From NCBI GenBank assembly GCA_016187485.1, contig JACPJO010000005.1, positions 7,499 through 71,498 on the forward strand: 64,000 nt of DNA, given 5' to 3'. The stretch's first letter is position 1. Each line of letters begins with the position of its first letter. Shown in pieces: positions 9,626 through 47,000 of the stretch. This DNA comes from Candidatus Uhrbacteria bacterium (GTDB lineage Bacteria > Patescibacteriota > Patescibacteriia > UBA9934 > UBA10169). The notes below the pieces were generated by a model. It worked only from the letters and a program-made list of their open reading frames with translations, had not been told where the DNA came from and searched no databases. The translations under genes and the position numbers were made by a program.

Positions 9626-9629
9626 TCCT

Positions 9630-10280: not shown

Positions 10281-10319
10281 CATCTCGAATATACTTGTAA
10301 AAAACCATCCATTAGATTT

Positions 10320-11338: not shown

Positions 11339-11602
11339 CCGCCGATTTTTGCAAAAAAGAAAGCCGAAGCCCGCGCGGATTCCTCCCCAGACCCCTCCTC
11401 CGCGCGGGCGAGTCCGTCGCCCCGCCTCCTTTGCCCCAGAAAAATAGTGGCGGGGCGCATCGCTTCAGATTTCGCTTCTTAGATTTGTGTATCAGATTCG
11501 GCAAAATGATTTCAAAAGTTTGCGAAGGTTTTAATTCGGGAGCCACATAGAACCGACGTGTTCAAACGCGTCGGTTTTATGTTTGTGATAGACTATTTTC
11601 GT

Positions 11603-12226: not shown

Positions 12227-12680
12227 CCATGCACCAGAGGATTATAAATGTCCCATCTGTCTTGCAATCAAAGGTATCGAAAGCGACGACACCTGGATTA
12301 TTCAAGATGACATCTTTTACCGCGATGATCTTGTAACCGGATTTATCAGCTCAAAATTCATCAAAGGCAATGAAGGGCACCCGGTGCTGGTTCCAAACGA
12401 GCATTACGAAAACCTCTATGATCTCTCGGAGATTGTCGGACATCGCATTTTCGACGTCTCTAAGCGCATCGCGACGGCGCTCAAGAAAATTCGTGGAGCC
12501 GATGGTATAACGATCCATCAAAGCAATGAGCCGGCGGGTGATCAACACGCGTTTCACTATCACCTTCACGTCGTCCCTCGATTCAACGGCGACCACTTCC
12601 ATGAAGAGCTTTGGAAAGCCTCCCGATCTCAACCAGAGGAGCGAACCGCGTTTGCTAAGACATTACGAGATCTCCTGTGA
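12219..12680 (+). CDS. HIT-family (histidine triad) nucleotide hydrolase/transferase
   Basis: Histidine triad HYHLHVVPR. It overlaps the HAD gene by 8 nt, suggesting an operon. Confidence 0.8.
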   Translation: MYNHAPEDYKCPICLAIKGIESDDTWIIQDDIFYRDDLVTGFISSKFIKGNEGHPVLVPNEHYENLYDLSEIVGHRIFDVSKRIATALKKIRGADGITIHQSNEPAGDQHAFHYHLHVVPRFNGDHFHEELWKASRSQPEERTAFAKTLRDLL

Positions 12681-13013
12681 GTCCTCTCCCTCCTGACTTC
12701 AAAGACCGACCGCGCATAGAGCGCTGGTGGATAAATCTGCAGGTGCTATTTCACCGTCGATCGGTGAAAGTTACCTGTTGCGAAACGTTTCGTACAGGTC
12801 CATACGCCTGCAAAGGCTGCGCCACGCTTTATGATTGTCATTCGACGAGTCTCTGGTACCGCTTCCTCGCTCGTCGCGCCAAACGCCGCTCGCCACTGGT
12901 GAAGATGTTATAATTCCACACTCCATTAGCTCTAATTCGTGAGAATAAGCGAATAGTAAAAGGCTCATGGCCCCGACAAGGGTGGGTGGGTGGATCTGAT
13001 CCCAATTCACATT

Positions 13014-32738: not shown

Positions 32739-33614
32739 ATGGAAAAACTGCTTTCCTGGTATAAAAAACACGGCCGGAAGTTGCCCTGGCGCCGCACGCG
32801 AGACCCGTACAAGATTCTCGTTTCGGAAGTTATGCTTCAGCAGACGCAGGTGCCGCGCGTCCTTTTATACTACGAAAAATGGCTCACGCAGTTTCCGTCG
32901 TGGAGATCTCTAGCGCAAGCAACGAACGCCCAAGTCATCCGCGCGTGGTCGGGGCTTGGGTATAATCGCCGTGCCCTTATGCTTCGCGACGTGGCAAAAA
33001 CTGTTGTGGGGCAGGGAGTGCCGAAGTCGGAGACGGATTGGCAGAAACTCAAAGGGATTGGGCCGTACACGGCGGCAGCGCTTGCGGTGTTCTCTTTGCG
33101 CACGAGGGCTCTGCCGATTGATGTGAACGTTCGCCGCGTTCTCGGGCGTGTGTTTTTTGGCAAGCCTTACCCAACACCCAAAATAGATCGGCTAATTTGT
33201 GAGAATAAGAGAATAGTTTTTGGACGAGCGCATCAGTTCTACGACGTTCCGCAAGCGTTATTTGATCTTTCCACAATGATCTGTAAGAAGAAACCGCTGT
33301 GCGAGATTTGTCCGTTGCGTACGGAGTGCAAAACGGCGCCAAGATTTCTCTCCGGAGGAGTAAAAACGCCAAAACGTTCTCTTAAGAAATCCCGCGAGCG
33401 TATTCGCATCGGTAAAAAATATCCTGACCGCATTTACCGGGGGCGTATTCTTAAACTGGCGGCCCACATTCGTGGGGTGGGCCTGCGCCATGTGGGTTCT
33501 GTGGTTGATCCGGCCTACACACCACGCGATGCCGCATGGATGACGGCTATGATCGAGCGTCTCATCGCCGATAAACTTGTTGTACGCCGCCGCGGTCGCT
33601 TATTCGTGGAATAA
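32739..33614 (+). CDS. HhH-GPD DNA glycosylase (MutY/Nth-type adenine glycosylase)
   Basis: LPWRRTRDPYKILVSEVMLQQTQV (HhH-GPD start) and CKKKPLCEICPLRTEC ([4Fe-4S] cluster loop). There is no NUDIX-like C-terminal domain. Confidence 0.8.
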   Translation: MEKLLSWYKKHGRKLPWRRTRDPYKILVSEVMLQQTQVPRVLLYYEKWLTQFPSWRSLAQATNAQVIRAWSGLGYNRRALMLRDVAKTVVGQGVPKSETDWQKLKGIGPYTAAALAVFSLRTRALPIDVNVRRVLGRVFFGKPYPTPKIDRLICENKRIVFGRAHQFYDVPQALFDLSTMICKKKPLCEICPLRTECKTAPRFLSGGVKTPKRSLKKSRERIRIGKKYPDRIYRGRILKLAAHIRGVGLRHVGSVVDPAYTPRDAAWMTAMIERLIADKLVVRRRGRLFVE

Positions 33615-33633
33615 CTGCTACAATTTTCCCACT

Positions 33634-34515
33634 ATGTCATCTCCTATCTTTACACGCAATGCGTTTTTGCATTTGCTTGCGTTCATCAGTTTTTATTGGG
33701 CTGTCGTGGGGCTTATCACGCTCTACTTCCAAATTGTCAACGCGCTCTTTCCGGACCCGCTTATCTATCAAGACATGACATTTGGCGCCATGCGGTGGGG
33801 GATTTCTTCGGTGGTTATTGCGTTCCCTGTTTTTGTCGTGACGATGCGGTTCATTCGGAGCCAGGGCATTATTCGACCGCATTTCCCCATATACTTCACG
33901 CTTTTTGTGACGGGTGTCACGGCCATGATTGATTTAGCTACGCTTGTATATCACCTCACCGGTGGGGATCTCACAACGCGGTTTATTTTGAAAGCACTGG
34001 CTGTGCTCGTGGTTGCCGGTTCCGTGTTTGCTTACGAATGGTGGCACTTGAAACATGACGCGCTTCACCCGTCCAAACGCGCACGCTTCATGTTTATCCT
34101 CGTCTATATTTTACTCGCGCTTTCTGTGGTTGACGCATTTTGGGTGATTGGTTTACCAAACGTGCGGCGGTCACAGTCGCTTGATGAACGGCGCGTAAAC
34201 GATCTTCGCTCTTTGCAATGGGAGGTGCTTTCTCTCTACCAACGGGATGGCGAACTTCCTGAAACGCTTGATATGCTTGTGCGCGATCCGGGCACCAGTG
34301 CTGCCTATGAGTATCGGCCACTCGACCTTGCGTCATTTGAGCTTTGTGCAACTTTTGATCGCGCTTCTACAGGAAAAGAATCGCCGCCTTATATGGGCCG
34401 ACCCATTGCGGAAACATCAGACATTTTTACCCATGGGGCCGGATACACGTGCTTTGCGCGCACGGTTGAAGCCGATCCGGCTGTAGCCAATGAAAAAATC
34501 TATCGGCTGAGGTAG
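33634..34515 (+). CDS. Membrane protein with 5-6 TM helices and a soluble C-terminal domain (hypothetical)
   Basis: Hydrophobic segments through about residue 170, then a polar C-terminus. Start chosen after the mutY stop; the track ORF begins at 33577. Confidence 0.4.
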   Translation: MSSPIFTRNAFLHLLAFISFYWAVVGLITLYFQIVNALFPDPLIYQDMTFGAMRWGISSVVIAFPVFVVTMRFIRSQGIIRPHFPIYFTLFVTGVTAMIDLATLVYHLTGGDLTTRFILKALAVLVVAGSVFAYEWWHLKHDALHPSKRARFMFILVYILLALSVVDAFWVIGLPNVRRSQSLDERRVNDLRSLQWEVLSLYQRDGELPETLDMLVRDPGTSAAYEYRPLDLASFELCATFDRASTGKESPPYMGRPIAETSDIFTHGAGYTCFARTVEADPAVANEKIYRLR

Positions 34516-34536
34516 GGGGAGAATAAGAGAGGTATA

Positions 34537-34567
34537 AAAGTCGAAAGCGACCCCGTGGGGTCGCTAG
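34537..34567 (-). terminator. Rho-independent terminator of the 519-aa GC-rich gene; copy 1 of a 31-nt element repeated in inverted orientation at 46746-46776
   Basis: On the minus strand the transcript reads AGCGACCCC-ACG-GGGGTCGCT followed by UUCGACUUUUAU. It is identical over 31 nt to the hairpin after the 45233..46723 gene. Confidence 0.6.
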
Positions 34568-34614
34568 GTCCTCCTTCGCCTTGATGGGCTACGGAGGATG
34601 GAGAGAAGGAACGT

Positions 34615-36174
34615 TCAGTCGTTGGGATCCGTGAGCTTGCGCACCCGCATAGCGTGGGTGTCGAACGTGCAGGGCGCGTCCGCGAGCGGGTAGAAGCGCC
34701 AGCAGTCGCGCGCGACGGGCGGCGTATCGCGCGGGGGGAAGCCCGGCACGAGCACGTCGGTCCGCGCGGCGAGGAGCTGGCGGTCGATCTGGTCCTGGGG
34801 CCACTCGAGTTCGTAGCGGAGCGTCTGTCCGCTCTGCACGACCGTGGCCGTGTAGAGCTCTCGGTGCTTCGTGCGGCTGAAGCCATCGTAGGTGGGCTTC
34901 ACGAACTGCCAGCCGCACTCGATGACGCGCGACTGCAGGGCCTCGTAGAACCATGCCTGGCGCACGATGCTCTCGCGCGGCACGGTCTTGGTGCCCTCGT
35001 CTTCGCGCCCCTTCTGTGGCCTCACGGACTTGACGTAGCCGGTGCCCCCTTCCTCCATCTCGGCGGCCAGGATGTGGCGGTACAGGTAGGGGGCGTTCTC
35101 CGGCGTGAGGCGCCGGAGGAGGTTGCCGAGCAGCTGCTCGCACTCCCGTCCCCACGTGTTCCTGTGCATGTCGAGCAGCAGGTGGGTGGCGATCGTGTAG
35201 GACGAGTCGCACGCGGGCAGCGCGCGCAGGATGTCGTAGCGCACGCCGATCGGGAGGGCGCGGAGGCTCTCCGTGTCGACGTGCTTCGCCGTCATGTTCG
35301 GCTGCGACAGCGCACTCGTCGTCGCCTCGATCATGGGCAGGGCCCAGTCGAAGCCGACCCGGGCGAGCGCCATGAGCTCCTTGATGCCCTTGTTGTAGAA
35401 CGCGTTGTGGGGCGGAGGTGGCGGGTTGCCGGCCTGGAGGTGCGCCGCGAATGCCGTAGCGAGCCACCACCGGTGAACGAACGCCAGCGGAGCCCGCCGT
35501 GCGCACTCCGTGACCATCTTGCGGAAGTCGTTCACGTCCTCGAAGCAGGGCCAGAGGGAGGCGGCCCATCCATCGGAGGAGTCGAGGAACTTCCCGGCGA
35601 ACGAGCCATCCGTGTTCGTCGTGATGAGCTCCCACACGATCTCGCGCATCATCTGCTTGCCGTCCCGGTGGGTCAGGATCACGTCCGTGAGCCACGTCGG
35701 GTCGTGGGAGCGGCGGAGGATGTGCGTCCGCGCCGTCTCCACGCGCTCCTCGATCGGGAGCCAGGCGAAGAGGATCGGCAGCTCCTGCACGATCTCCGTC
35801 ATCTGGGTCCACGACGTGTCCGTCGTGAGAACCCGTGCGAGTGCCGCACGGTCTGCCTCGGGCAGGATCGTTCCGAGGTGCTCCAGACTCTGCAGGACCC
35901 AGCAGAGCCCGTGGGCCTGCGTGATGTCCTCGGGGAGGTTGCACTCGCGGTCGCGCTCGATCGCGGTCAGGATGTCCGCCAGCTTGAGCGTCCCCGTCTC
36001 GTCGCGAACCGTGAGGTCGGGGTGCAGCATGAAGCGCGCCTGGCGCGTCTTCTGTGCCTTCTTCTCCTTGATGGCCTTGTCGCGGGCCTGCTGGTACTCG
36101 AGGAAGCTGAACCCGCGATTTTCGAGATCCTTCCGGATTTCCTGCATCTCCTCACTGTTGAGCTCGATGTCCAT
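34615..36174 (-). CDS. Large hypothetical protein (519 aa) encoded in a GC-rich (foreign-looking) block
   Basis: Long ORF with balanced, protein-like composition. The overlapping long ORFs in other frames are Arg/Pro/Ala-rich high-GC artefacts. I recognise no catalytic motif. Confidence 0.55.
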   Translation of the reverse strand: MDIELNSEEMQEIRKDLENRGFSFLEYQQARDKAIKEKKAQKTRQARFMLHPDLTVRDETGTLKLADILTAIERDRECNLPEDITQAHGLCWVLQSLEHLGTILPEADRAALARVLTTDTSWTQMTEIVQELPILFAWLPIEERVETARTHILRRSHDPTWLTDVILTHRDGKQMMREIVWELITTNTDGSFAGKFLDSSDGWAASLWPCFEDVNDFRKMVTECARRAPLAFVHRWWLATAFAAHLQAGNPPPPPHNAFYNKGIKELMALARVGFDWALPMIEATTSALSQPNMTAKHVDTESLRALPIGVRYDILRALPACDSSYTIATHLLLDMHRNTWGRECEQLLGNLLRRLTPENAPYLYRHILAAEMEEGGTGYVKSVRPQKGREDEGTKTVPRESIVRQAWFYEALQSRVIECGWQFVKPTYDGFSRTKHRELYTATVVQSGQTLRYELEWPQDQIDRQLLAARTDVLVPGFPPRDTPPVARDCWRFYPLADAPCTFDTHAMRVRKLTDPND

Positions 36175-36196
36175 GGTCGGTCTGCCTTTCTGGTGC

Positions 36197-36252
36197 GAAA
36201 TGCACCTTTCAAGGCAGGGCCACCATCGGCCCTACCTTGAAAGGTGCATTTC
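36197..36252. promoter_or_regulatory. 56-nt near-perfect palindrome (25-bp arms, 1 mismatch, 6-nt spacer) upstream of the 519-aa gene
   Basis: GAAATGCACCTTTCAAGGCAGGGCC-ACCATC-GGCCCTACCTTGAAAGGTGCATTTC. No U-tract follows on either strand, so this is not a terminator. It lies in the divergent region between gene 34615..36174 and xth. Confidence 0.5.
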
Positions 36253-36443
36253 ACGCCTTCAGGGGGCCGACGTCCTACAATTTTACGGTGGACGTTGGAA
36301 GTAGGATCTAACTACATAACATGGGAATGTCCTGTTTTCTCCTCGGCTTGCTTGCCGAATGGAGGTGACAGAATACCAAAAAACGGTCGAAATGTCAATA
36401 CATAATGGAAGACTCCGTCCGTGATACAATTTCTGCAATATCT

Positions 36444-37247
36444 ATGCCAAAGCGCACGCGCACGATTATCTCTTGGAATGTCAACGGTATTCGCTCGGTC
36501 TTGCGGCAGGGTCTTTCGGATTTTATAAAAAAACACCATCCCGACATTCTCTGCCTACAAGAAACGAAGGCTGAGCAAGGCCAAGCCGTCGTAGATTTGC
36601 CGGACTATGAGGAGTATTGGAATAGTGCAAAGAAGAGAAAGGGATATTCTGGCACCGCGATTTTCTCCAAGCAAAAACCTCTCTCGGTTTCTTTTGATTT
36701 ACCTGTCAAAGGCGGGGTGCTTACGGACGAGTATGGGGACGCTAATGGGGAAGGGCGCGTGATCACGGCCGATTACGGAGACTTTTTTCTGGTCAACGTG
36801 TATACACCAAATGCAAAGCCGGACTTGGGACGTCTGGCGTACCGACATAAAGTTTGGGACCCGGCGTTTCTGAAATATCTTAAAGCCCTTGAAAAGAAAA
36901 AACCCGTGATTGCCACAGGCGATTTCAATGTGGCGCACGAGGAGATAGACATTGCGCGACCGAAAGAGAATGTGAAAAACGCCGGCTTTACTCCCGAAGA
37001 GCGCAAAGGGTTTGAGCGCATAGTGGAGGCGGGGTTCGTGGACACGTTCCGTCTGCTCCACCCAAACGAAAAAGATCGTTACACGTGGTGGGCGCGCTGG
37101 AGCAATGCCCGTGCGCGCAATGTCGGTTGGCGCATTGATTATGTTATCGTCTCGCCGGCGCTCAAGAGAAAAATTAAACGCGCGTTTATTCTTGACCATG
37201 TTATGGGCTCCGATCATTGCCCTGTGGGGGTTGATTTGCTAGGGTAG
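36444..37247 (+). CDS. xth: Exodeoxyribonuclease III (Xth, AP endonuclease)
   Basis: ISWNVNGIRS, LCLQETK, DFNVAHEEIDI, NVGWRIDYVIVS and SDHCPVGVDL are the catalytic motifs of the ExoIII family. Confidence 0.85.
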   Translation: MPKRTRTIISWNVNGIRSVLRQGLSDFIKKHHPDILCLQETKAEQGQAVVDLPDYEEYWNSAKKRKGYSGTAIFSKQKPLSVSFDLPVKGGVLTDEYGDANGEGRVITADYGDFFLVNVYTPNAKPDLGRLAYRHKVWDPAFLKYLKALEKKKPVIATGDFNVAHEEIDIARPKENVKNAGFTPEERKGFERIVEAGFVDTFRLLHPNEKDRYTWWARWSNARARNVGWRIDYVIVSPALKRKIKRAFILDHVMGSDHCPVGVDLLG

Positions 37248-37253
37248 CTCCGT

Positions 37254-38756
37254 ATGAACATCACTATCGTCAAAGGCAGACTGGAGGAACAAAAGGCCGA
37301 CCTTCTTGTGGTAAATGAATTCTCTGGTGTGGAGAAAACCGGCGGAGCGACGGGATCTGTTAATAAAGCGCTTGGGGGGCTTTTGGAGAAACTCATGAAG
37401 GAGGAGCAGTTTAATGGCGGACAGAGGGAGACGCTTCTAGTGCGGACGGGGGGTGTTATTCCCGGCTCACGGGTTCTTCTTGTTGGACTCGGTGAACGAA
37501 AAGATTTTTCTCTAGAAACCGTACGCGAGGTGAGCGCTGCTGCGTACAACACAGCGAAGAAACTTGGGGCGCGCCGCGTCGTCTCGATTCTTCACGGCGC
37601 AGGAGCAGGGAAGTTGTCGGCGCTTCTGTGTGCAAAGGCACAGACCGAAGGCGTACGGCTTGCCGAATATGAATTTGTTAAACGGAAAAAGGCACCAGAG
37701 AAAAAGACGCCGAAAGTAGAGTCCTGGACTATCGTCTCTTCGGATGCTGCTCATGTGCGTGCGGGGGCAAGGGGGGTGGGCGAAGGCGAACTTTCTGCCG
37801 AGGGAACGATCTTTGCGCGCGACCTTGTGAATGAGCCAGCGGGACAGATGACGCCAAGACATTTGGCGCTCGCGGCGCAAAACATCGCAAAGGTGAGCAA
37901 AGGAGCCGTTCGTATAAAAGTTTTTGAAGCAGGGCAGATCGAAAAGATGGGTATGGGGGGGGTTGCCGGCGTTGGTCAAGGATCTGTTCATCCGCCATAT
38001 TTTGTCCACCTTATCTACAAGCCACGCGGGGCAAAGAAAACGGTTGCGGTGGTGGGGAAGGGCATCACGTTTGACTCCGGTGGTCTTTCTCTCAAACCGG
38101 CCGACTACATGATGACGATGAAGTGCGACATGGCCGGTGCCGCGGCGGTGCTTGGGTTGTTCTCGGTGCTTACGCGGGTTGCTCCAAAGGTTACAGTGCA
38201 CGGGATTTTTGGCGCCTGTGAAAATATGCCGTCGGGAAACGCCATTCGACCGGGCGATGTACTCAAAGCGCTCAATGGAAAGACGATGGAGGTGTTGAAT
38301 ACGGATGCCGAGGGACGTTTGACGCTGGCCGACAGTCTTTCGTATGCGTCCAAATTGAAGCCCGACGCTCTTGTGGACCTTGCCACACTTACGGGTGCGT
38401 GCATGGCGGCACTTGGTGAAGAGATAACAGGGGTGATGGGGAACGACCACAAGTTGACAGGAGCAATATTGCAAGCGGCTGCCGCGGCTGGCGAAAAGAT
38501 GTGGGAGCTGCCACTTGAGAAGAGATACAAAGATCTCATCAAATCTGAAATTGCCGACGTAAAAAATATCGGGGGGAAATACGGCGGCGCCATTACCGCG
38601 GGTCTCTTCCTGCAAGAATTTGTTGACGCGGAAATTCCCTGGGTTCATCTAGACATTGCCGGTCCCGCGTTTGCCGAGCGGCCGGTAAATGCGTACACCC
38701 GTTATGGCGGCACCGGAGCCGGTGTAACAACACTCATCGAGTTCTTGAAAAAGTAG
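37254..38756 (+). CDS. pepA: Leucyl aminopeptidase (M17 family, PepA)
   Basis: NTDAEGRL signature. Metal-binding residues lie in VGKGITFDSGG and DMAGAAAV. Confidence 0.85.
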   Translation: MNITIVKGRLEEQKADLLVVNEFSGVEKTGGATGSVNKALGGLLEKLMKEEQFNGGQRETLLVRTGGVIPGSRVLLVGLGERKDFSLETVREVSAAAYNTAKKLGARRVVSILHGAGAGKLSALLCAKAQTEGVRLAEYEFVKRKKAPEKKTPKVESWTIVSSDAAHVRAGARGVGEGELSAEGTIFARDLVNEPAGQMTPRHLALAAQNIAKVSKGAVRIKVFEAGQIEKMGMGGVAGVGQGSVHPPYFVHLIYKPRGAKKTVAVVGKGITFDSGGLSLKPADYMMTMKCDMAGAAAVLGLFSVLTRVAPKVTVHGIFGACENMPSGNAIRPGDVLKALNGKTMEVLNTDAEGRLTLADSLSYASKLKPDALVDLATLTGACMAALGEEITGVMGNDHKLTGAILQAAAAAGEKMWELPLEKRYKDLIKSEIADVKNIGGKYGGAITAGLFLQEFVDAEIPWVHLDIAGPAFAERPVNAYTRYGGTGAGVTTLIEFLKK

Positions 38757-38803
38757 GCTCGGGCGTGTAACCGCTACGTCCACCTTATCTTCCTCGCTCG
38801 AGT

Positions 38804-39366
38804 CTATTTTCCAAGCGTTTGCTCACCCGGCTTCCAATCTACGGGACAGCGTTCGCCGGTTTGCAGCGCCGCAAGAACACGCAGGACCTCATCTACGGAT
38901 CGTCCGACGTCGAGATCGTTGTATGCGGCGTAGCGCAAGACTCCTTCGGGATCAATGATGAAGGTGCCACGAAGCGTGATGCCCTTACTGTGCACAAGAA
39001 CACCGTACGCGTCGCTCATCTCTTGCGTCATGTCCGAGAGCATGGGGAATTTGAGAGGCCCGATTTCTTTGAGCCACTGCTTGTGCGAATGCACGCTGTC
39101 GGTTGAGCAGCTGTACACGATTGTATTGAGCTTTTGAAAATCCGCAAAGCGCGTGGAGAACTGTGTGATCTCCGTGGGACAAATGAATGTGAAATCGAGC
39201 GGGTAGAAGAAAAGGACAACCCATTCACCACGGTGGCTTTTCAGGGGATAGGTGCGGAAGGTAACTCCGTCCGTATCTACTCCCTCTAGGGTAAAGTCTG
39301 GCGCCTGCTCTCCCACTTGCGCGTGTGCGCAGCAAAGGAAATCTTCGGTATTTTGGTCTATCATAG
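38804..39366 (-). CDS. Peroxiredoxin (AhpC/TSA family, 2-Cys type)
   Basis: FTFICPTE peroxidatic-Cys motif. The start is trimmed to MIDQNTEDF (188 aa); the track ORF extends to 39601. Confidence 0.85.
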
Positions 39367-39410
39367 GTAAACAGCATAGCAAAAAATAAGGCAATTTGGT
39401 AGAGTGACGC

Positions 39411-40433
39411 ATGACTATGCAGGGACGCGGAAGAATTTTTCTTGGGATTTTAGCGGTTTTTGCCGTCGTGCTTTTTATTGCAGAATATCGAGCGCGAACC
39501 GCAGGGCCTCGTATCGAGCCGTTTGCGCAAAGCGAAGGGTGGGGTATCCCGCGTGAGGAAGTGTATGACTCCGGCCTCTCGTCCTCGTCCATTCCGGCCA
39601 TTGACGCCCCCGCGTTTATTTCCCCAAGCGAAGCGGATATATTTTTGTATGATGAAGGCGAGGGTGTCTCCCTATCCCTGGGCGGCGAGACACAATTCTA
39701 TCCTTTCCAGATTCTTGTGTGGCACATGGTTGTGAACGACATGATTGCCGGTGTGCCCATTGTTGTTACCTACGATCCTCTTGTGGGAAGCGCGATGGTC
39801 TACGATCGCCGTGTGGAGGGCCGCACCCTCTTGTTTTCGGTGAGTGGAAAATTATGGAACTCAAACGTTCTCTTGCTTGATCGCGAGACGGGAAGCCTTT
39901 GGCCGCAAACAACAGGACGGGCGGTGAATGGGGAATTCCTTGATCGCGATCTTGCACCGATAGGATCGGAAATCGTCACCTGGAAAAAGTGGAAGGCACA
40001 ACGCACAACAGGACGCGTGCTCTCTAAAAACACCGGGGCTGTGCGTGACTATACGCGTAATCCTTATCTTGGCTACGAAGAAAATCGTTTAGTGTATTTC
40101 CCGCTTTCCCGTCGTGACATTCGTCTCCACCCAAAGGAACTCGTCTTTGGGTATACAGGACCGGAAGGCGAGACGAAAGCGTACCCGCGCGAGTATTTGG
40201 TGGAAGAGGGAAGTATCACCGACACGGTTCTCGGGCGCAAAGTTGTCATGACGTTTAACGAGAACACAGGTGTGCTTCGTGCGAGGGGAGAAGATGTGGC
40301 GGGCGTGGCAAGCGATGTATTTCTCCGTCCTATGTATTGGTTCGCATGGGCGGCGATCCATCCAGACACAGAGCTCTATGACCCGCTCGGAGAAAAACAG
40401 AAAGTGGAAAGTGAACAGCAAGAAGGAGAGTAG
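39411..40433 (+). CDS. Membrane-anchored/secreted protein, possibly DUF3179 family (hypothetical)
   Basis: N-terminal signal anchor (IFLGILAVFAVVLFI) and a conserved-looking core with WNSNVLLLDRETGSLWPQ. Family assignment is from memory only. Confidence 0.4.
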   Translation: MTMQGRGRIFLGILAVFAVVLFIAEYRARTAGPRIEPFAQSEGWGIPREEVYDSGLSSSSIPAIDAPAFISPSEADIFLYDEGEGVSLSLGGETQFYPFQILVWHMVVNDMIAGVPIVVTYDPLVGSAMVYDRRVEGRTLLFSVSGKLWNSNVLLLDRETGSLWPQTTGRAVNGEFLDRDLAPIGSEIVTWKKWKAQRTTGRVLSKNTGAVRDYTRNPYLGYEENRLVYFPLSRRDIRLHPKELVFGYTGPEGETKAYPREYLVEEGSITDTVLGRKVVMTFNENTGVLRARGEDVAGVASDVFLRPMYWFAWAAIHPDTELYDPLGEKQKVESEQQEGE

Positions 40434-40435
40434 CT

Positions 40436-41116
40436 ATGGGAACGCTCTTTGTCGTGGCGACGCCCATTGGGAACCTCCAGGATATTTCTGCGCGGGCGCG
40501 TGAGATTCTCGCGTCGGCCGATCTTGTGCTGTGCGAGGATACGCGCGTGACGGCAAAACTTCTTTCTGTGTACGACATCCACGTACGCACTGCCGCCCTG
40601 CATCAACATTCCACAGATGCGAAACACCAAGCGTATATCCGGCTGCTTGCCGAAGGAAAGACGCTCGCGCTTGTAAGCGACGCGGGAACACCAGCGATTT
40701 CCGACCCCGGCGGGAGGTTTGTAGAGGATGTTCTTCGCGCTCTTGGGGATGAAGCAAAGATCATTCCTATCCCCGGGCCGTCCGCAGTTACGGCAGTGTT
40801 AAGTGTCTCTGGATTTCCTGCAGACACCTTCACGTTTCTCGGTTTTCCCCCGCAGAAAAAGGGCCGAGAAGCTTTTTTCCGTTCGCTTGTTCACATCGAA
40901 CATACGGTAGTGTTTTACGAATCTATCCACCGTATTGTGAAGGCGCTCGCGTCTCTTTCGGCTCTTCTGCCGGAGCGCCAGATGGTGCTCTGCCGGGAGC
41001 TTACAAAACTGCACGAACATATCTATCGCGGGACGCCGGCGCAAGTGACAGACGCTCTTTTGGGTGATAGCATCAAAGGTGAGTGTGTGATCGTGCTTGC
41101 GCCCGCACGGTTTTAA
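40436..41116 (+). CDS. rsmI: 16S rRNA (cytidine1402-2'-O)-methyltransferase RsmI
   Basis: LFVVATPIGNLQDISARAREILASADLVLCEDTRVTAKLL is the tetrapyrrole-methylase-fold RsmI N-terminus. Confidence 0.85.
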   Translation: MGTLFVVATPIGNLQDISARAREILASADLVLCEDTRVTAKLLSVYDIHVRTAALHQHSTDAKHQAYIRLLAEGKTLALVSDAGTPAISDPGGRFVEDVLRALGDEAKIIPIPGPSAVTAVLSVSGFPADTFTFLGFPPQKKGREAFFRSLVHIEHTVVFYESIHRIVKALASLSALLPERQMVLCRELTKLHEHIYRGTPAQVTDALLGDSIKGECVIVLAPARF

Positions 41117-41117
41117 T

Positions 41118-42575
41118 ATGTCTCGTTTTTATCTCACGACAACTCTCCCCTACGTAAATGCCGATCCGCACATCGGATTCGCTCTTGAGATTGTGCAGGC
41201 GGATGTTGTGGCGCGCCTCCATCGCCAAAAGGGAGAGGAAGTTATTTTCAACACGGGCACAGACGAACATGGCCAGAAGATTTATCAAAAGGCTCTCGAA
41301 CAGGGGAAAGAGCCGCAGGCGTACTGTAATGAATATGCCGCAAAATTTGATCGGCTGAAGACGGCGCTTAACCTCTCCTACACGCATTTTATTCGTACGA
41401 CATCGCCAGACCATGTCGCGGCGGCACAGGAATTTTGGAGGCGTTGCGATGCGCACGGCGACATCTACAAAAAAAATTATCAGACAAAGTATTGCGTCGG
41501 GTGCGAATTGGAGAAACAAGACTCGGAGTTGACCGATGGCCGTTGCCCCGTTCATCCGAACCTTGCGCTTGAGCTGCGCGAGGAGGAAAATTATTTTTTC
41601 CGTTTTTCCAACTACCAGAAACCCCTCCTGGATCTCTATACGGCACATCCGGATTTTGTCGTGCCGGACTATCGGCTGACCGAAATCAAAAATTTCGTCG
41701 AGGCTGGGTTGCAGGATTTCAGCATCTCGCGACTAAAAGAGAAAATGCCGTGGGGAGTAAGCGTGCCGGGTGATGAAGCGCACGTGATGTATGTCTGGTT
41801 TGATGCGCTCATTAACTATATCTCTACGCTTGGCTGGCCCAAGGAGGGAAGTGATTTTGAAACCTTCTGGCCTGGGGTGCAGGTGGCGGGGAAGGACAAC
41901 CTTCGCCAACAGTCGGCAATGTGGCAGGCTATGTTGCTGTCGGCGGGGTTACCTCCATCCGAACAAATTTTCATACATGGTTTTATTACCGCGGATGGGG
42001 CGAAGATGAGTAAGTCGCTTGGAAATGTGGTGGATCCGTTTGCGATGGTCGAGCGTTATGGCACAGACGCCCTGCGGTACTATCTTCTGCGCGAGATTGT
42101 TTATGGGGCAGACGGGGATTTTTCGCTTTCACGGTTTGACGAACGATACAACGGTGATCTTGCGGATGAGCTTGGCAACTTGCTCCATCGTGTGCTCACC
42201 ATGACAGAGAAGTACGCAGAGGGGATTGCGCCTGCTCCCTCCGCTCAGGGAAAACAAGTTTCCGTGGACCGCGCCTATTTTGAGGAGCTCACTGACCAGT
42301 ATCGTTTCAGCGAAGCTCTCTCTCTGGTGTGGGATGTGGTGCGTATCGCCAATCAAGATATTGAGAACGCGAAACCGTGGGCGATGGCGAAAGAGGGGCG
42401 TTTCGATGAGGTGAAAGACGAGCTTGCGCACCTTTTGCATCTTCTCCGACAAATTGCTGACATGTTGGCTTCCTATTTGCCGGAGACGGCCGAACGAATG
42501 AAGCGCGCACTTGCCGAGCCCGGAAAACCAATAATGAAAGGGGAGCCGCTCTTCCCTAAAATGGAAACTCTATGA
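41118..42575 (+). CDS. metG: Methionyl-tRNA synthetase
   Basis: HIGH-type motif (PHIGFA), KMSKS motif (KMSKSLGNVVDP) and a zinc-knuckle CVGCELE...CPVHP. Confidence 0.9.
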   Translation: MSRFYLTTTLPYVNADPHIGFALEIVQADVVARLHRQKGEEVIFNTGTDEHGQKIYQKALEQGKEPQAYCNEYAAKFDRLKTALNLSYTHFIRTTSPDHVAAAQEFWRRCDAHGDIYKKNYQTKYCVGCELEKQDSELTDGRCPVHPNLALELREEENYFFRFSNYQKPLLDLYTAHPDFVVPDYRLTEIKNFVEAGLQDFSISRLKEKMPWGVSVPGDEAHVMYVWFDALINYISTLGWPKEGSDFETFWPGVQVAGKDNLRQQSAMWQAMLLSAGLPPSEQIFIHGFITADGAKMSKSLGNVVDPFAMVERYGTDALRYYLLREIVYGADGDFSLSRFDERYNGDLADELGNLLHRVLTMTEKYAEGIAPAPSAQGKQVSVDRAYFEELTDQYRFSEALSLVWDVVRIANQDIENAKPWAMAKEGRFDEVKDELAHLLHLLRQIADMLASYLPETAERMKRALAEPGKPIMKGEPLFPKMETL

Positions 42576-43060
42576 CCTTTTCTCTCATGGACCTTATTCT
42601 TCTTGTCGTGCTCGGTCTCTTCACACTTGCCGGGCTCTACTTTGGGCTCTTCCATACGCTTGGAAGTCTCGTGGGCGCCGTCTTCTCCATCTTTGCTACC
42701 GGCTATGCCATGCCCTACGTGAGCAGTTGGCTTTCTGCGTGGATTCCGCTCTCGCCCCCGTTTACGGTTGTGCTGTTTGTCGTGCTTTTCCTTATCATCA
42801 GCCGATTGGTGGGATTTGTTTTCTGGATTCTCGATGAGACGCTTGGCATTGTGACGCGTCTCCCGTTTCTCTCTTCGGTTAATCATCTTTTGGGCGGCGT
42901 GTTTGGTTTTGTGGAAGGTGTTATTGCGCTTGGCGTGCTCATCTATGTGATCAACACGTACATCCCTTCGGGAGCGTTCCTCTCGGCCATAGCGGCTTCG
43001 CCAATTGCCGGATGGATTGTCGCCCTCACCGGCTGGCTGACCCCGTTGTTACCGTTTTAA
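42572..43060 (+). CDS. CvpA-family membrane protein (tentative)
   Basis: Four hydrophobic helices with the N-terminal pattern MDLILLVVLGLFTLAGLYFGLF. 162 aa. Confidence 0.45.
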   Translation: MTFSLMDLILLVVLGLFTLAGLYFGLFHTLGSLVGAVFSIFATGYAMPYVSSWLSAWIPLSPPFTVVLFVVLFLIISRLVGFVFWILDETLGIVTRLPFLSSVNHLLGGVFGFVEGVIALGVLIYVINTYIPSGAFLSAIAASPIAGWIVALTGWLTPLLPF

Positions 43061-43099
43061 CAACGAGGCAGTCTGCTGGCAGGACTCCGAGCATCATCT

Positions 43100-43984
43100 A
43101 TGACTCTTTTCGATTCCCACTGCCACGTCCATTTTCGTGCTTATAAGGAGGACAGGGATGCTGTTATTAAGCGTGCAACCGAAGAGGGCGTTTTCATGCT
43201 TACCGTGGGGACGCAGGCGGATACGTCGCGTGAAGCGGTGCGTGTGGCTAACGCGCATGAAGGTGTGTGGGCGACGGTGGGGCTTCACCCCAATCACACG
43301 ACGGCACAAGAGTTTGTAGACGAGAGTGAGGAGGACACCATAGCGAAAGTCAAAACGCGCACAGAAGTTTTTGACGCGGAAATGTATCGTCCGCTTGCGC
43401 AAGATCCAAAGTGCGTGGCGATTGGGGAGTGCGGACTCGACTTTTATCGCATCCCCGAACATCTTGATCGAACGGACGTCATACGAACGCAAGAAGAGAT
43501 GCTGCGGCGGCAGTTTGATTTGGCGACCGAACTTGGGAAGCCCGTGGTCATCCATTGCCGCGACGCGCACAAAGAACAGGCAGATATAATTGAAGAGTAT
43601 GTCAAAAAGGGAAAGCTGGGTGCGCGGGGTGTGATCCATTGTTTTACGGGTACGAAGGAAGATGCCCTTCGGTATCTTGCGCTTGGGTTTTATATTTCGT
43701 TTTCGGGGGTCGTGACGTTTCCGCCACGTAAAGAGGGGTCTGACCCCTCCGGGGGTCAGACCCCTCTTGCGCCGCTTGCGCTTGTGGCGCGTGATATTCC
43801 GGAGAATCGAATTCTCATCGAAACTGACGCCCCCTATTTAGCGCCTATTCCCATGCGGGGTAAGCGCAATGAGCCGGCGTATGTGCGTCATACAGCAGAA
43901 TTTTTGGCAAAGTTGCGTGGAGTGACTTTGGAGGAGTTTGCAAAGGTGACAACAGAGAACACGAGGAGAGTATTTGGCATTTGA
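43100..43984 (+). CDS. tatD: TatD-family metal-dependent DNase/hydrolase, carrying an in-frame palindromic insertion
   Basis: N-terminal FDSHCHVHF and internal IETDAPYLAP motifs. A 38-nt perfect palindrome (43731-43768) encodes an extra KEGSDPSGGQTPL loop. Confidence 0.85.
   Translation: MTLFDSHCHVHFRAYKEDRDAVIKRATEEGVFMLTVGTQADTSREAVRVANAHEGVWATVGLHPNHTTAQEFVDESEEDTIAKVKTRTEVFDAEMYRPLAQDPKCVAIGECGLDFYRIPEHLDRTDVIRTQEEMLRRQFDLATELGKPVVIHCRDAHKEQADIIEEYVKKGKLGARGVIHCFTGTKEDALRYLALGFYISFSGVVTFPPRKEGSDPSGGQTPLAPLALVARDIPENRILIETDAPYLAPIPMRGKRNEPAYVRHTAEFLAKLRGVTLEEFAKVTTENTRRVFGI
43731..43768. repeat. Perfect 38-nt palindrome made of two GGGGTC(T/A)GACCCC units, inserted in-frame in tatD
   Basis: AAGAGGGGTCTGACCCC-TCCG-GGGGTCAGACCCCTCTT. 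The same 13-mer GGGGTCAGACCCC recurs at 23488-23500, and a related GGGTC-N3-GACCC motif occurs at 3004-3021. Confidence 0.7.
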
Positions 43985-44030
43985 AATTCGAAAGCCAGGC
44001 ACGAGGCCTGGCTAGGAAGAAAAGAACGAA

Positions 44031-45104
44031 CTAGAGCTTGTGGCCGAGGCGGCGCATGGTGGCGTGGATGTCGCTCACCACGAGCACGGCGTCGGCACGC
44101 GTGAGGTGCCACACGCGCTCGCCGTCCCAGTGGCGAAGTGGTCGCCGGATTGCCGAATCCTCGTTGAGTAGATCGGTGTAGAGTGCGCGCAGTCGGGGCT
44201 CGGACTTCTCTCCCTCGAATCGCTTGATGCGCAGTTTGAGGCGCCGAGCGAGCTCCGCCGACATCTCCTCGCGACTCTTCCGTGCCGCGACGAGCCGGAG
44301 GCTCGTATACACGCCGTCGTCTCGTCCCTGCTCCCACGCTGCGATGAGCTCCGGTTCCGGACTCACGCGGATGTAGTTGGCGGGGAGCGTGCGCGGCGGC
44401 GGTTGGGCGGCCTCGGTGCGCGGTGTGGCCTCTGCCGAAGGCGGTTCTGCCGCCTGCCGCTGCGCCTGCTCAATGTCCGCCGCCGTGACACCGCTTCCCG
44501 CCTGCACGACTTGTGCGCGCAGGCGCTCTTCGCGAATGCGCGCCCGGGAGCTTTCCGCCGCCGCCGTCTCTTCCGCCGTCTTCACGAGCTCCATCTTCTG
44601 CGTTCTAGCGTAGGCGGTGAAGCCATCGCGCACAGAGGAGTTCCAGAAGGCGCTGTCGTCGGGCCAGTCGGGCGCATCGTTGGGGGACGTGTAGCCGAGT
44701 TGTCGCGCCATCGCGATCACCTCGTCGTACTGATCGTCTCCCTCGGGCGCGATCTGCATCGGCTCGTCGGGGTTGCGGGAGGAACTGTGTCGGTACTTGT
44801 CGAGCGCCTTGAGTCCGTAGTAGATCGCCTCGCGCAGACTCTCGTCCACGCCGACCTTTTCGAGCAAGGTCTTCCATTGCTCGAGCGCGCCAGGCTTCTC
44901 CACGCTCTTCGTGAAGGTCCCCCGAGGGAGGAACCTCACGGCGCCCTCGACGAACGGGGCGAATTCGTAGCTGCCGTCCTTCTCTCGGTCTACGTAGTTG
45001 TTCCCCCCCTCCATCTGACGTGCGTCGGCGAAGGGGAGGGCGACGAGGTCCAGGTACTCCTGAGGATTCAGTTCAGAAAGGCTGATAGCCATGGGGTACT
45101 CCAC
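44031..45104 (-). CDS. Hypothetical protein (357 aa) in a GC-rich foreign block
   Basis: Long ORF with normal composition, a central Ala/Glu/Gln/Pro-rich linker and a charged C-terminal domain. Divergent from the 45233 gene. Confidence 0.5.
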   Translation of the reverse strand: MEYPMAISLSELNPQEYLDLVALPFADARQMEGGNNYVDREKDGSYEFAPFVEGAVRFLPRGTFTKSVEKPGALEQWKTLLEKVGVDESLREAIYYGLKALDKYRHSSSRNPDEPMQIAPEGDDQYDEVIAMARQLGYTSPNDAPDWPDDSAFWNSSVRDGFTAYARTQKMELVKTAEETAAAESSRARIREERLRAQVVQAGSGVTAADIEQAQRQAAEPPSAEATPRTEAAQPPPRTLPANYIRVSPEPELIAAWEQGRDDGVYTSLRLVAARKSREEMSAELARRLKLRIKRFEGEKSEPRLRALYTDLLNEDSAIRRPLRHWDGERVWHLTRADAVLVVSDIHATMRRLGHKL

Positions 45105-45158
45105 TTCGTATAGGTTAGGAAAAGGCCGAAACGCCTCAACTTAGCAAAAAAACCTGTC

Positions 45159-45178
45159 GCTGTCAATGCGTTGACAGC
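45159..45178. promoter_or_regulatory. Palindromic operator candidate overlapping a TTGACA -35 box between divergent GC-rich genes
   Basis: GCTGTCAA-TGCG-TTGACAGC is a perfect 8-bp inverted repeat. A CTGTCG/CTGTCA direct repeat lies immediately upstream. Confidence 0.45.
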
Positions 45179-45232
45179 AGCAGACTTTTCTGCTAGGTTA
45201 AGCCCTTAGTTTGCGGCGATCCTGCCGCGAGC

Positions 45233-46723
45233 TTGGGCCGTCCAAAGACGGACGGCAAGTTCCTTGCAAGATGTTGGGCAATCCCGCCCTGTGTACGGCG
45301 CCGTGTGGCGCAGAAAGTGAGAGAGGCCATGCCTCGTCCCCGTAAGGCTCTGCCTGCAGAGCTCCGGCCCGCCATTCCGGGCAAACCGGTCAATCTTCTT
45401 CCCGACAAGTACCGCCGGAACCCCCTCCAGTTCGCCCGCGAGGAGATCGACATCGCGCGCAACAAGGGGGAAGTGCCCGACAACGATGCCGCTTTCCAGA
45501 CCCAGATCATCGAGGAGGACGAACGGCGGTGGCGGTCGCGCGAGCTGCCCGCCATCGCGGGGTACGTGAACCGGATGTACGCGCGCGGAACGTTCGTGGA
45601 CCCCGACGACTTCATGATCGTCTGGGGGCTCTGGAACCAGCACACCCACAGCTTCCGGCTCTCGCACGGCGACCCGGCGGTCACGAACGTTCTCACTGCC
45701 CACAACCAGGGCATGGCCCGCCCCATCACCGATGCGTTCCGCCCCATCCACGAGAAGGCGGTTCCGGTCCCGTTGGCGCTCCTCGCCTTCGAGAAGCGGG
45801 AGATGGGCGAGGACGTCCCGGCGGGCGTCGAGACGTCGGTGTACGTCTACGTCTGCATGCCGGCCAATCTCGAGGCATCGGTGAAAGACGGAAACTTCAC
45901 CGACGACGTGAGCGTGGGCGACACCCAGGTCTACACCACGGATCGCCAGGCAGTGCACCGCCGGAAGGAGGGCAATTTCCTCTTCCGGCCGAACAGCGTG
46001 TCCAAGCACCCCCGCAAGCGCTTCGTCGCCTTCCATCCCGTCACGAAGAAGCCGATCTACCTCGCTGTGATCCCGCAGCGCTTCCTGCGCCGTGGCAAAG
46101 AGGGCGAGGAAGGCTTCCAGCCCGGGCAGCCCTGCCCGGTGGACATGGACGAGTTCGCGGACGGCTACCAGGCCCAGGTCATGGACGAAGGTGCGGTGGC
46201 CACGGACGAGCCGGCGGAAGAGGAAGTCAAGAAGATCCTCGACCGCATCGCGCACGGAGGTGCCGGCGGGCGCAAGGCCAGCAGGCAGGGCGAGTTCGAC
46301 TTCGACGGCCGCGTCTGGAACGCGCTCTCGATCCTCGGCATCAAGGAGGGTGAAGCGCCGACGGCAGAGAGCATCGGGAAGGCGCGCAGGCGCTACAGTC
46401 CGAGGCTCTTCGATGCTCGAAGCGCCATGGGCCTCCACAGCGCCCTCGTCCTGCTCGGCATGCCCGAGAGCGATCGCACCGCGTACATGAAGGACAAGCA
46501 CTTCGAGATCTTCAAAGCCGCGGTCGGTGTGGCCGAGGGGATGCTGCCGAAGGCCGAGCCGGTGGAGGAGACGGAAGGCGACAAGCCCGCCGACTCGCCA
46601 CCCGCAACAAGCGAAGCGTCCAGCGCGACGACCTCGCCCGCCGACACGACGGACGACCCCGCCATGTCCCAGCCCGCCGCGACCCGCAAGGCCCCGCGCG
46701 TGGAACCCGGCACCGACGACTGA
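45233..46723 (+). CDS. Large hypothetical protein (up to 496 aa) in a GC-rich foreign block, with acidic Ser/Thr/Pro-rich C-terminal tail
   Basis: Long ORF whose overlapping antisense ORFs show high-GC artefact composition. The true start is possibly the Met at about 45329 (MPRPRKAL). Stop TGA at 46721-46723. Confidence 0.5.
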   Translation: MGRPKTDGKFLARCWAIPPCVRRRVAQKVREAMPRPRKALPAELRPAIPGKPVNLLPDKYRRNPLQFAREEIDIARNKGEVPDNDAAFQTQIIEEDERRWRSRELPAIAGYVNRMYARGTFVDPDDFMIVWGLWNQHTHSFRLSHGDPAVTNVLTAHNQGMARPITDAFRPIHEKAVPVPLALLAFEKREMGEDVPAGVETSVYVYVCMPANLEASVKDGNFTDDVSVGDTQVYTTDRQAVHRRKEGNFLFRPNSVSKHPRKRFVAFHPVTKKPIYLAVIPQRFLRRGKEGEEGFQPGQPCPVDMDEFADGYQAQVMDEGAVATDEPAEEEVKKILDRIAHGGAGGRKASRQGEFDFDGRVWNALSILGIKEGEAPTAESIGKARRRYSPRLFDARSAMGLHSALVLLGMPESDRTAYMKDKHFEIFKAAVGVAEGMLPKAEPVEETEGDKPADSPPATSEASSATTSPADTTDDPAMSQPAATRKAPRVEPGTDD

Positions 46724-46745
46724 CAGACCAATTCGTTCTTTCTCT

Positions 46746-46776
46746 CTAGCGACCCCACGGGGTCGCTTTCGACTTT
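46746..46776 (+). terminator. Rho-independent terminator; copy 2 (inverted) of the 31-nt element at 34537-34567
   Basis: AGCGACCCC-ACG-GGGGTCGCT followed by TTCGACTTTTTTG. Starts 23 nt after the stop of gene 45233..46723. Confidence 0.65.
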
Positions 46777-47000
46777 TTTGTATCTTTCCTTTATTCCCCC
46801 TCGAAGGTATGTAAGGATAATCTAAGGCGTGTCGCAAGGACGGGGCCCCCATAACCCCGCAGCCCAGCTCAGCTGGGCGCAGCGAGTCATCGAGCGAGGA
46901 GGATGGGGTGGACGTAGCGGTTACACGCCGTCTTGTTACCTGTTCAAAACTTCCCTTGACCTTTAGTGTCTTTCCCTATATACTTTCGGCGCTTTTCGAT

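Follow-up and report, generated by a model that had tools for sequence, protein, structure and literature searches.

Genomic islands of atypical composition, hot spots of GC-biased gene conversion (gBGC), variable intervals flanked by core genes, and divergent gene pairs under a palindromic operator are the described systems closest to two GC-rich segments in a 64,000-nt stretch, hereafter the window, of a Candidatus Uhrbacteria metagenome-assembled genome (MAG; assembly GCA_016187485.1, contig JACPJO010000005.1, positions 7,499 to 71,498 of the forward strand). Block II (window 44,031–46,777) carries a divergent pair of genes, p353 and p464, and block I (34,550–36,200) carries a single gene, p519. 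Like genomic islands, the blocks show abrupt GC steps at gene boundaries, contain unassigned genes and occupy a site that is variable among relatives. Unlike such islands, their position and junction are conserved in distant relatives, mobility genes, tRNA genes and flanking direct repeats are lacking, and their GC content lies above that of the host and has not drifted toward it despite 50–75 % protein divergence.

The mouse Fxy gene in the pseudoautosomal region is a hot-spot case of gBGC, and the blocks share with such hot spots a very high GC content at third codon positions (GC3), raised GC content at first and second positions (GC1 and GC2), more Ala, Arg, Gly and Pro, and accelerated protein evolution, all at particular loci only. 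The effect seen here, +0.3 to +0.45 in GC3, is nevertheless far above bacterial reports, and the non-coding pieces of the blocks are not enriched; gBGC in bacteria is treated by Lassalle et al. 2015 (PMC4450053). Core-gene-flanked hot spots for defence or integration are matched in that the interval between the TatD gene and the atp operon, where block II lies, is either empty or filled with unrelated cargo (p353/p464, a second pair termed famB/B′, a methyltransferase or small open reading frames, ORFs), but here there is no PADLOC, Pfam or PHROG match and no integrase, and cargo and junction are inherited together from species to species. Divergent pairs under a palindromic operator in a bidirectional promoter include phage immunity switches and C-protein controlled restriction-modification systems. 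Block II resembles these in its head-to-head promoters, in −35 boxes that lie within one dyad-symmetric element and in a symmetry kept by paired changes; it differs in that no helix-turn-helix (HTH) or other DNA-binding domain is detectable and in that the proteins are large (353 and 464 aa). The promoter symmetry may simply be that of two copies of one strong promoter.

Taken jointly with the module, rate and GC3 arguments and the functional suggestions made below, it seems fairly probable that blocks I and II are resident, clade-specific genes and not recent imports. Block II would be a two-gene module transcribed outward from a dyad-symmetric bidirectional promoter of sigma-70 type, each gene having its own terminator and p464 additionally a structured leader. 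The TatD-atp interval would have housed the pair already before Uhrbacteria lineages with TatD proteins only 77 % identical separated, p519 would be fixed likewise between a membrane-protein gene and xth, and the GC excess would be kept by a continuing local process. The genes concerned are as follows.

44031–45092, minus strand: p353 gene (353 aa), GC3 0.82, orphan family
45329–46723, plus strand: p464 gene (464 aa), GC3 0.88, orphan family
34615–36174, minus strand: p519 gene (519 aa, block I), GC3 0.93, orphan family

An earlier reading of the sequence alone had described an abrupt high-GC segment of about 2.7 kb at block II, and this is borne out: GC content is 0.62–0.72 over 44,000–46,700, against 0.50–0.56 (about 0.53) in the flanks. 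Block I (GC 0.64–0.71) is the only other GC-rich segment that stands out, and the blocks average 0.66–0.67 in a host of 0.50–0.54, a clear deviation in composition. GC1/GC2/GC3 values are 0.69/0.46/0.82 for p353, 0.67/0.46/0.88 for p464 and 0.64/0.45/0.93 for p519; the order GC3>GC1>GC2 indicates that the proposed frames are the coding ones. Host genes of the window have GC3 of 0.45–0.66, and values above 0.8 occur only in the three block genes. Long antisense ORFs (548, 528 and 451 aa) were rejected as high-GC artefacts on their shadow-frame GC pattern and a junk composition with much Arg, Gly, Leu and Val. No further ORF with coding-type composition is present inside either block. Two outward-facing ORFs with coding-type GC3 thus uphold the divergent pair of the sequence-only reading, and its remark that the two blocks are compositionally alike agrees with the codon usage of the three genes, which correlates at r = 0.89–0.92. 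Within the blocks only coding sequences and the structured leader of p464 show the GC excess; promoters (0.47) and the 3′ untranslated region (0.41) are low, and the boundaries are sharp at gene ends.

For the minus-strand ORF of block II the candidate starts are 45,104 and 45,092, of which relatives favour the ATG at 45,092 (353 aa, ribosome-binding site (RBS) GGAG); for the plus-strand ORF they are 45,233 and 45,329, and relatives favour the ATG at 45,329 (464 aa), not the TTG at 45,233. Protein sizes first put at 357 and about 470–496 aa are revised accordingly to 353 and 464 aa, and an intergenic region first put at 128 bp becomes 236 bp. NCBI annotates the three genes as hypothetical proteins (HYW18_03000, HYW18_03005 and HYW18_02955) on a 303-kb contig of this Candidatus Uhrbacteria MAG. 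The model HYW18_03000 (302 aa) begins 51 codons late (window 44940–45092), and the 51 N-terminal residues missing from it, which include the motif YLDLVALPFA, are conserved in the p353 relatives P0004, L103 and L102.

All three proteins are acidic (pI 5.4–5.9), hydrophilic and Cys-poor, without transmembrane (TM) segments. In p353 (pI 5.4, no Cys, no TM segment) the motif YLDLVALPFA lies in an N-terminal domain, which a low-complexity stretch with many A, E, R and P residues joins to a C-terminal domain of ~110 aa. p464 begins with a basic N-terminus and a long helix; its core is rich in beta structure, its C-terminal domain is helical, and its acidic tail is disordered, with many S, T and P residues. 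The basic N-terminus and the acidic tail, both already noted from the sequence, are common to its relatives. Conserved motifs of the p519 family are GW..(F/L)WP, NAP.(Y/F)Y.H.LA and VR.AWFY...ECGW. No hydrophobic N-terminus or export signal, as would be expected of an S-layer protein, is apparent in the three proteins by hydropathy (maximum KD19 0.70–1.14).

Searches of Pfam, NCBIfam, PADLOC and PHROGs returned nothing significant for the three proteins or for members of their families. PADLOC-DB 2.0 gave 0 families at E≤1 for all three, and Pfam, NCBIfam and PDB profile searches revealed no defence-type enzymatic or sensor domain (nuclease, ATPase, TIR, Sir2, etc.). PDB sequence and profile searches found nothing for the three proteins, and the best PHROGs match (E 0.0011), to a family of unknown function, appeared in one of four members. 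There was no tblastn match at E≤1 in 50,697 phage genomes and no relative of the three proteins in IMG/VR scans, and a word-indexed search of 5.8 billion proteins matched each of the three genes to itself only. An AlphaFold2 (AF2) model of p464 built from six family members has an overall pLDDT (predicted local distance difference test) of 59, with 70–82 over residues 20–290; it gave no Foldseek match at E<0.01 among solved or viral (BFVD) structures, and weak Ku and OB-fold rows were discarded, their probability being 0.03 or less. A single-sequence AF2 model (pLDDT 36) was not used. The empty Pfam, NCBIfam, PADLOC, PHROGs and PDB searches agree with the earlier statement that the proteins lack recognizable domains. 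The same cannot be said of the defence or phage-derived module proposed with it: neither PADLOC, PHROGs, INPHARED, IMG/VR nor BFVD holds a significant match, and defence-database and remote-homology checks of the kind then suggested (PADLOC, PDB profiles and, for p464, Foldseek) gave none.

Relatives do exist at greater distance. An exhaustive HMMER search of 1.84 billion representative proteins, with a concatenate of the three proteins as query, gave 10 matches, of which seven are distant relatives. For p353 the relatives are P0004 (43 % by HMMER, 39 % by BLAST), a 470-aa protein in L103 and an N-terminal fragment in L102; for p464 they are P0007, P0008 and P0009 (25–27 %); for p519 they are P0005 (33–36 %), P0006 and P0010/P0015 (about 23–27 %). 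P0008 clusters with HBL39108.1 of another Candidatus Uhrbacteria MAG, and a metagenome scan for further p464 relatives yielded only the L100 contig already known. No homologues were found outside contexts of the candidate phyla radiation (CPR) among these representatives, and from sequence matches the three families seem, so far, to be confined to Patescibacteria. The loci of the relatives are arranged as follows (amino acid identities to the window in brackets).

L099/L100: TatD (77 %), converging p353 relative (39 %), head-to-head p464 relative (226 residues present, 50 % over these)
L096/L102: p353-family N-terminus head to head with P0011 (p464 family), then atpB (74 %)-atpE-F-H-A
L104: p464 relative, then atpB (66 %)
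L103: 470-aa p353-family gene head to head with P0009, the pair alone, with no flanks to judge
L105: p519 relative converging on a homologue (46 %) of the window membrane protein (33,577–34,515)
L106: xth homologue (65 %) diverging from a p519 relative
L097/L098: p519 relative adjoining an HTH_3 protein; host GC 0.38

Every relative with readable flanks thus lies in a Patescibacteria/Uhrbacteria-like context, and most occupy the same two sites as in the window, between TatD and the atp operon for the pair and between the membrane-protein gene and xth for p519. At the TatD/p353 junction the window and L099 align base for base, including a shared hairpin with compensatory changes in its stem. 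No insertion polymorphism is seen, the same families being at the same sites in L099/L100, L096/L102, L104, L105 and L106, and no same-species strain with an empty site is present among the Logan contigs. These orthologous positions imply that the blocks predate the split of lineages whose flanking proteins are 46–77 % identical. The genes of the p353 and p464 families stand head to head in at least three other lineages (L099/L100, L096/L102 and L103), so the co-occurrence anticipated for the pair was found. For the three-gene system of the sequence-only reading no second locus was seen: the p519 family stands near the pair in the window only, among contigs that reach 21.6 kb for L097, 12.3 kb for L096 and only 1.4–6.5 kb for most.

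The interval between TatD and the atp operon was further examined in 80 loci around MetRS, taken from GTDB species representatives. Gene order in the group is widely conserved as pepA-ahpC-DUF3179-methylase-MetRS-(CvpA)-TatD-atp operon; the TatD-atpB interval measures 300–450 bp in five genomes (L021, L034, L048, L052 and L066) and 0.6–3.5 kb in the others. Four loci hold another divergent pair there, famB (526–580 aa, with a low-complexity tail) and B′ (281–382 aa).

L016, 13070–14194: famB/B′
L018, 12982–15709: famB/B′
L028, 3760–6768: famB/B′
L033, 12860–15820: famB/B′

The similar size, divergent layout and low-complexity tails made famB/B′ candidates for very distant homologues of p464/p353, a relation that found no support at hhalign probabilities of <1 %; from this comparison they are treated as analogous occupants of the site. 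In another Uhrbacteria MAG (L020, 12878–13966) the interval is occupied by a gene of host-like composition for a class I SAM-dependent methyltransferase (Methyltransf_23, E 2e-28). Several relatives, among them L018 (15740–16057), L020, L033 and L040, have ahead of atpB a small membrane gene of AtpZ/AtpI type with the motif YYRLAGRIFADFSG, and more diverged copies occur in L043, L046 and L047; it is absent from the window (46778–46997), and L096–L103 gave no match. Several GTDB records titled ‘uncultured Gammaproteobacteria’, ‘Pseudomonadales’ or ‘Nanoarchaeota’ (L018, L022, L025, L031, L034 and others) show Patescibacteria-type synteny and MetRS identities of 55–65 %, and by these sequence features the titles look like mislabels.

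A recent horizontal acquisition of both blocks from one high-GC donor, together forming a defence or phage-derived system, would account for the abrupt composition steps (GC3 0.82–0.93 in a host of ~0.56), for the near-identical codon usage of the three genes (r = 0.89–0.92), for an identical 32-nt terminator in both blocks, and for a TatD-atp site that is elsewhere empty (300–450 bp) or occupied by different cargo. Yet position and junction are orthologous where the flanking genes are only 46–77 % identical in amino acids, the blocks carry no integrase, tRNA gene or direct repeats, PADLOC, PHROGs, INPHARED, IMG/VR and BFVD lack a significant match, the 1.84 billion representatives include no donor homologue outside CPR contexts, and a preference for Leu CTC rather than CTG fits CPR usage. 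We regard such an acquisition as decidedly improbable. The horizontally transferred insertion of the sequence-only reading lacks support in view of the same TatD-atp and membrane-protein/xth sites in relatives and the orthologous TatD/p353 junction. As to mobility features at the blocks themselves, no integrase, tRNA target or att/direct repeats were found; the window is without tRNA genes, and the only repeat is the inverted 32-nt pair.

The abrupt steps could also be expected of an assembly chimera in which GC-rich fragments of another organism had entered the MAG, the more so as the outer junctions coincide with a 32-nt repeat that breaks k=31 assemblies. However, Logan contigs from at least 10 independent SRA runs match the window at 100 % over the TatD/p353 and xth/p519 junctions, a single contig covers 35,329–46,775 and so links block I to block II, and the gene order is shared with other species; contamination by a foreign contig fragment is almost inconceivable on this evidence. 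Among the Logan contigs identity is complete or almost complete (a single mismatch occurs in L110), and active hypermutation or diversification was rejected on the 100 % identity of contigs from at least 10 samples. Nearly all of them end at, or ≤3 nt from, the outer end of the 32-nt repeat, as would be expected with k=31 assembly; the exceptions are L109 and L110, which end further inside the segment, and L014, which ends 7 nt inside the p519 terminator repeat. The inner junctions are secure, and the outer junctions (34,536 and 46,777) rest on the MAG contig alone.

The cargo proteins diverge much faster than their neighbours. Between the window and L099, TatD is 77 % identical, p353 39 % and p464 50 %; between L016 and L018, TatD is 72 %, MetRS 76 %, pepA 66 % and famB 41 % identical. 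Amino acid differences in cargo proteins are thus about two to three times those of the neighbours. The contrast between TatD and the pair at an orthologous junction indicates that the blocks are old, positionally fixed and fast-evolving.

Their GC richness has persisted over the same span. All members of the three families have GC contents of 0.58–0.71 and GC3 of 0.70–0.96, against GC3 of 0.31–0.67 in adjacent genes, and the excess is not restricted to these families: famB is likewise raised (L016, 0.83 vs 0.46; L018, 0.84 vs 0.50). Cargo and neighbour compare as follows.

L105: GC3 0.87 in the cargo, 0.41 in the neighbour
L106: GC3 0.90 in the cargo, 0.49 in the neighbour
L097: GC3 0.70 in the cargo, 0.31 in the neighbour
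L096: GC3 0.96 in the cargo, 0.67 in the neighbour

With GC1 and GC2 raised as well and protein divergence two- to threefold that of the flanks at specific loci, the pattern agrees with that of a gBGC hot spot. Family GC3 is 0.85 ± 0.08 over hosts whose GC3 ranges from 0.37 to 0.69, and its correlation with the host (r = 0.37) is not significant. Codon usage among members in hosts of different GC content correlates at r = 0.53–0.95, mostly >0.7, the L097 p519 relative being lowest. At third positions C is at ~0.52 and G at ~0.36. Most high-GC bacteria typically use CTG for Leu; here CTC makes up 65–80 % of Leu codons in 9 of 10 family sets and 50 % in L099, and CTG leads in L097. CTY is the preferred Leu box of the hosts too.

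A near-constant GC3 across such different hosts is also what would be expected if the loci were old and their contents had been replaced repeatedly by alleles of high-GC Patescibacteria, through homologous recombination in the conserved flanks and promoter, GC3 then reflecting the donors. High-GC relatives with the same synteny exist: L074 has a GC content of 0.62, housekeeping GC3 of 0.88, 50 % CTC and a codon usage that correlates with the pooled blocks at r = 0.87. The sharp boundaries at gene ends and the alternation of non-homologous modules at one site would fit as well. On the other hand, no family member was found in the high-GC genomes L046, L047 and L074 within the stretches covered, cassette divergence scales with host divergence in both lineage pairs compared, and the host of lowest GC content (L097) has a relative of lower GC3 (0.70). 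We consider this recurrent import of alleles rather unlikely.

The control region of block II, whose features are given below together with those of block I, adds a further conserved element.

45138–45199, both strands: candidate bidirectional promoter of p353/p464, from sequence reading and the same layout in relatives
45206–45328, plus strand: putative structured 5′ leader of p464, ~123 nt, GC 0.62, several hairpins, with RBS GAGAGAGG before the ATG at 45,329
36175–36398, minus strand: predicted p519 promoter and ~190-nt leader, from sequence reading; fold z = −9.2
43993–44013, no strand assigned: hairpin between converging TatD (stop 43,984) and p353 (stop 44,031), from the sequence and the L099 alignment; putative shared bidirectional terminator and left border of block II
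46746–46777, plus strand: predicted intrinsic terminator of p464, stem GCGACCCC/GGGGTCGC then a T-rich tail
34536–34567, minus strand: predicted terminator of p519, second copy of the 32-nt repeat

The leftward promoter consists of TTGACA (complement of 45,161–45,166), 17 nt and TGcTAAGTT (complement of 45,138–45,146), and the rightward promoter of TTGACA (45,171–45,176), 17 nt and TGcTAGGTT (45,191–45,199). Transcription is predicted to start near 45,206 and 45,131 here, and near 36,363 for p519. The perfect 20-nt palindrome GCTGTCAATGCGTTGACAGC at 45,159–45,178, of which 0 matches are expected in shuffles, reads as two back-to-back −35 boxes, TGTCAA-TGCG-TTGACA. A perfect palindrome overlapping a TTGACA box had been seen at the outset, and the matching layout in relatives marks it as a conserved regulatory feature: back-to-back TTGACA boxes, 17-nt spacers and TGn-extended −10 boxes are kept in four lineages, with a gap between the −35 boxes of 4 nt in L099, 19 nt in L103 and 23 nt in L096/L102, the last with 19-nt perfect arms. 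The outermost bases of the palindrome vary symmetrically (GC..GC in the window, AT..AT in L099). Over the intergenic DNA the window and L099 are 78 % identical with the hairpins kept, which exceeds the identity of the proteins (39–50 %). A terminator scan had suggested that the palindrome might be a minus-strand terminator; this was rejected on the spacers and −10 boxes kept in four lineages. No Rfam family was found for the block II intergenic region, where only chance-level rows were returned.

The p464 leader folds with a minimum free energy of −58.7 kcal/mol (z = −2.5). The p519 promoter comprises TTGACA (36,398–36,393), 17 nt and TGgTATTCT ending at 36,370, and its leader contains a hairpin with 30-nt arms (36,192–36,257) immediately upstream of the RBS. 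By eye, inverted repeats of unrelated sequence can also be read upstream of the start in the leaders that precede the L105 and L097 relatives of p519.

Perfect −35 boxes, 17-nt spacers, extended −10 boxes and long structured leaders (z = −9.2 and z = −2.5), joined to acidic, Cys-poor, low-complexity and fast-diverging proteins, raise the possibility that the three genes encode extremely abundant proteins, envelope or S-layer-like or otherwise structural, and that codon bias, promoters, leaders and terminators all reflect high expression. S-layer genes commonly combine such traits. Against this, hydropathy shows neither a signal peptide nor a TM segment (maximum KD19 1.14), GC1 and GC2 are raised as well, and every codon family is enriched in codons ending in C as well as in G, which resembles a compositional shift more than a tRNA-matched choice. 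In L097, rpsO has a GC3 of 0.29 vs 0.70 in the p519 relative, and ATP-synthase genes lie barely (0.01–0.07) above the host mean. Translational selection was rejected as the cause of the GC3 on the rpsO and atp values and the enrichment of both C- and G-ending codons, and high abundance as an explanation of the loci is improbable.

Both blocks end in the same terminator. The repeat CTAGCGACCCCACGGGGTCGCTTTCGACTTTT lies at 46,746–46,777 on the plus strand and at 34,536–34,567 on the minus strand as exact inverted copies of 32 nt, 0 being expected by chance; that the terminators are exact reverse complements had been recognized before, with a length of 31 nt that is now measured as 32 nt and a start that lies 22, not 23, nt after the stop. 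The 32-nt terminator is not found at related loci, each of which has its own hairpin; a terminator specific to such blocks is thus not supported, the shared copy being special to this genome. Its confinement to the blocks of this genome indicates that the identity of the two copies is a recent event inside the genome. The copies (34536–46777) bracket 12.2 kb, from p519 through TatD, p353 and p464, and recombination between them would invert the segment, whose present orientation agrees with the ancestral gene order and GC skew. The 12.2-kb segment was also tried as a composite mobile unit, which was rejected because the order from pepA to TatD is ancestral synteny in many relatives.

Under the favoured reading, that of long-resident clade-specific genes, p353 and p464 may act together and be co-regulated through the palindrome; the regulator that binds it is probably a dimer and possibly one of the pair itself. 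Fast divergence and the presence of unrelated alternative pairs at the same site suggest an accessory role of conflict type, for example in interaction with the host cell or the phages of an episymbiotic CPR bacterium. The process that would keep the GC excess is most likely either gBGC at a hot spot of recombination or a repeated exchange, by way of the conserved flanks, of resident alleles for those of high-GC Patescibacteria. A bolder proposal, doubtful at present, is that several unrelated orphan genes of Uhrbacteria sit at fixed loci under a continuing, gene-specific GC-enriching process, a bacterial counterpart of a gBGC hot spot or a form of targeted recombination or repair. Such a process would drive GC3 to 0.7–0.96 in hosts of 0.3–0.65 while speeding protein evolution two- to threefold, and such loci might be marked in part by their structured leaders and the dyad-symmetric promoter.

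Several points weigh against the favoured reading. No regulator with a known DNA-binding domain is present, and the conflict-type role is drawn only from evolutionary rate, low-complexity regions and site variability. We know of no report of gBGC of such size in bacteria, and the short non-coding pieces within the blocks are not GC-enriched. The weak tie of family GC3 to host GC3 would follow just as well from an unchanging GC-rich source pool as from a local shift of constant size. With four to six short contigs per family, vertical descent cannot be separated from repeated replacement by orthologous alleles. Finally, the shared 32-nt terminator is unexplained by independent long residence and needs a recent intragenomic duplication or gene conversion.

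Other features of the window deserve mention. A group I intron (RF00028, 74.8 bits) is located at 3,338–3,589 on the plus strand, immediately following an ORF of 85 aa (3,049–3,306) whose N-terminus is GIY-YIG-like; no tRNA or rRNA gene was called in the window. A stretch of lower GC content (4077–12700, GC 0.37–0.47) contains two large minus-strand ORFs (639 and 898 aa), an 89-aa Cas2/VapD-like ORF (8,795–9,064) and a pair of XRE-type HTH and ImmA-like genes (9,281–10,112), and looks like a conventional accessory or defence island more than the GC-rich blocks do. A 40-nt inverted repeat of 93 % identity and host-like composition lies at 38762–38801, just after the pepA stop, and at 46890–46929, just upstream of the atp promoter; it is a second dispersed repeat of short length in this genome. 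The TatD coding sequence contains, at 43731–43768, a perfect palindrome whose arms are 17 nt long (AAGAGGGGTCTGACCCC / GGGGTCAGACCCCTCTT).

No curated family contains a relative of the three families or of the fourth and fifth that occupy the TatD-atp site in sister lineages, none of them has a recognizable fold, and no description of such a persistently GC-rich pattern of orphan genes was found in the literature. Atypical composition is routinely taken as a sign of recent horizontal transfer; here genes of this kind stand at orthologous sites past synonymous saturation with their GC3 unrelaxed. This would mean either that a strong local force acts on bacterial nucleotide content or that a hidden pool of high-GC alleles is continually sampled by recombination. 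In either case the reading of compositional islands would change, and the loci would offer a concrete system for testing biased gene conversion in bacteria.

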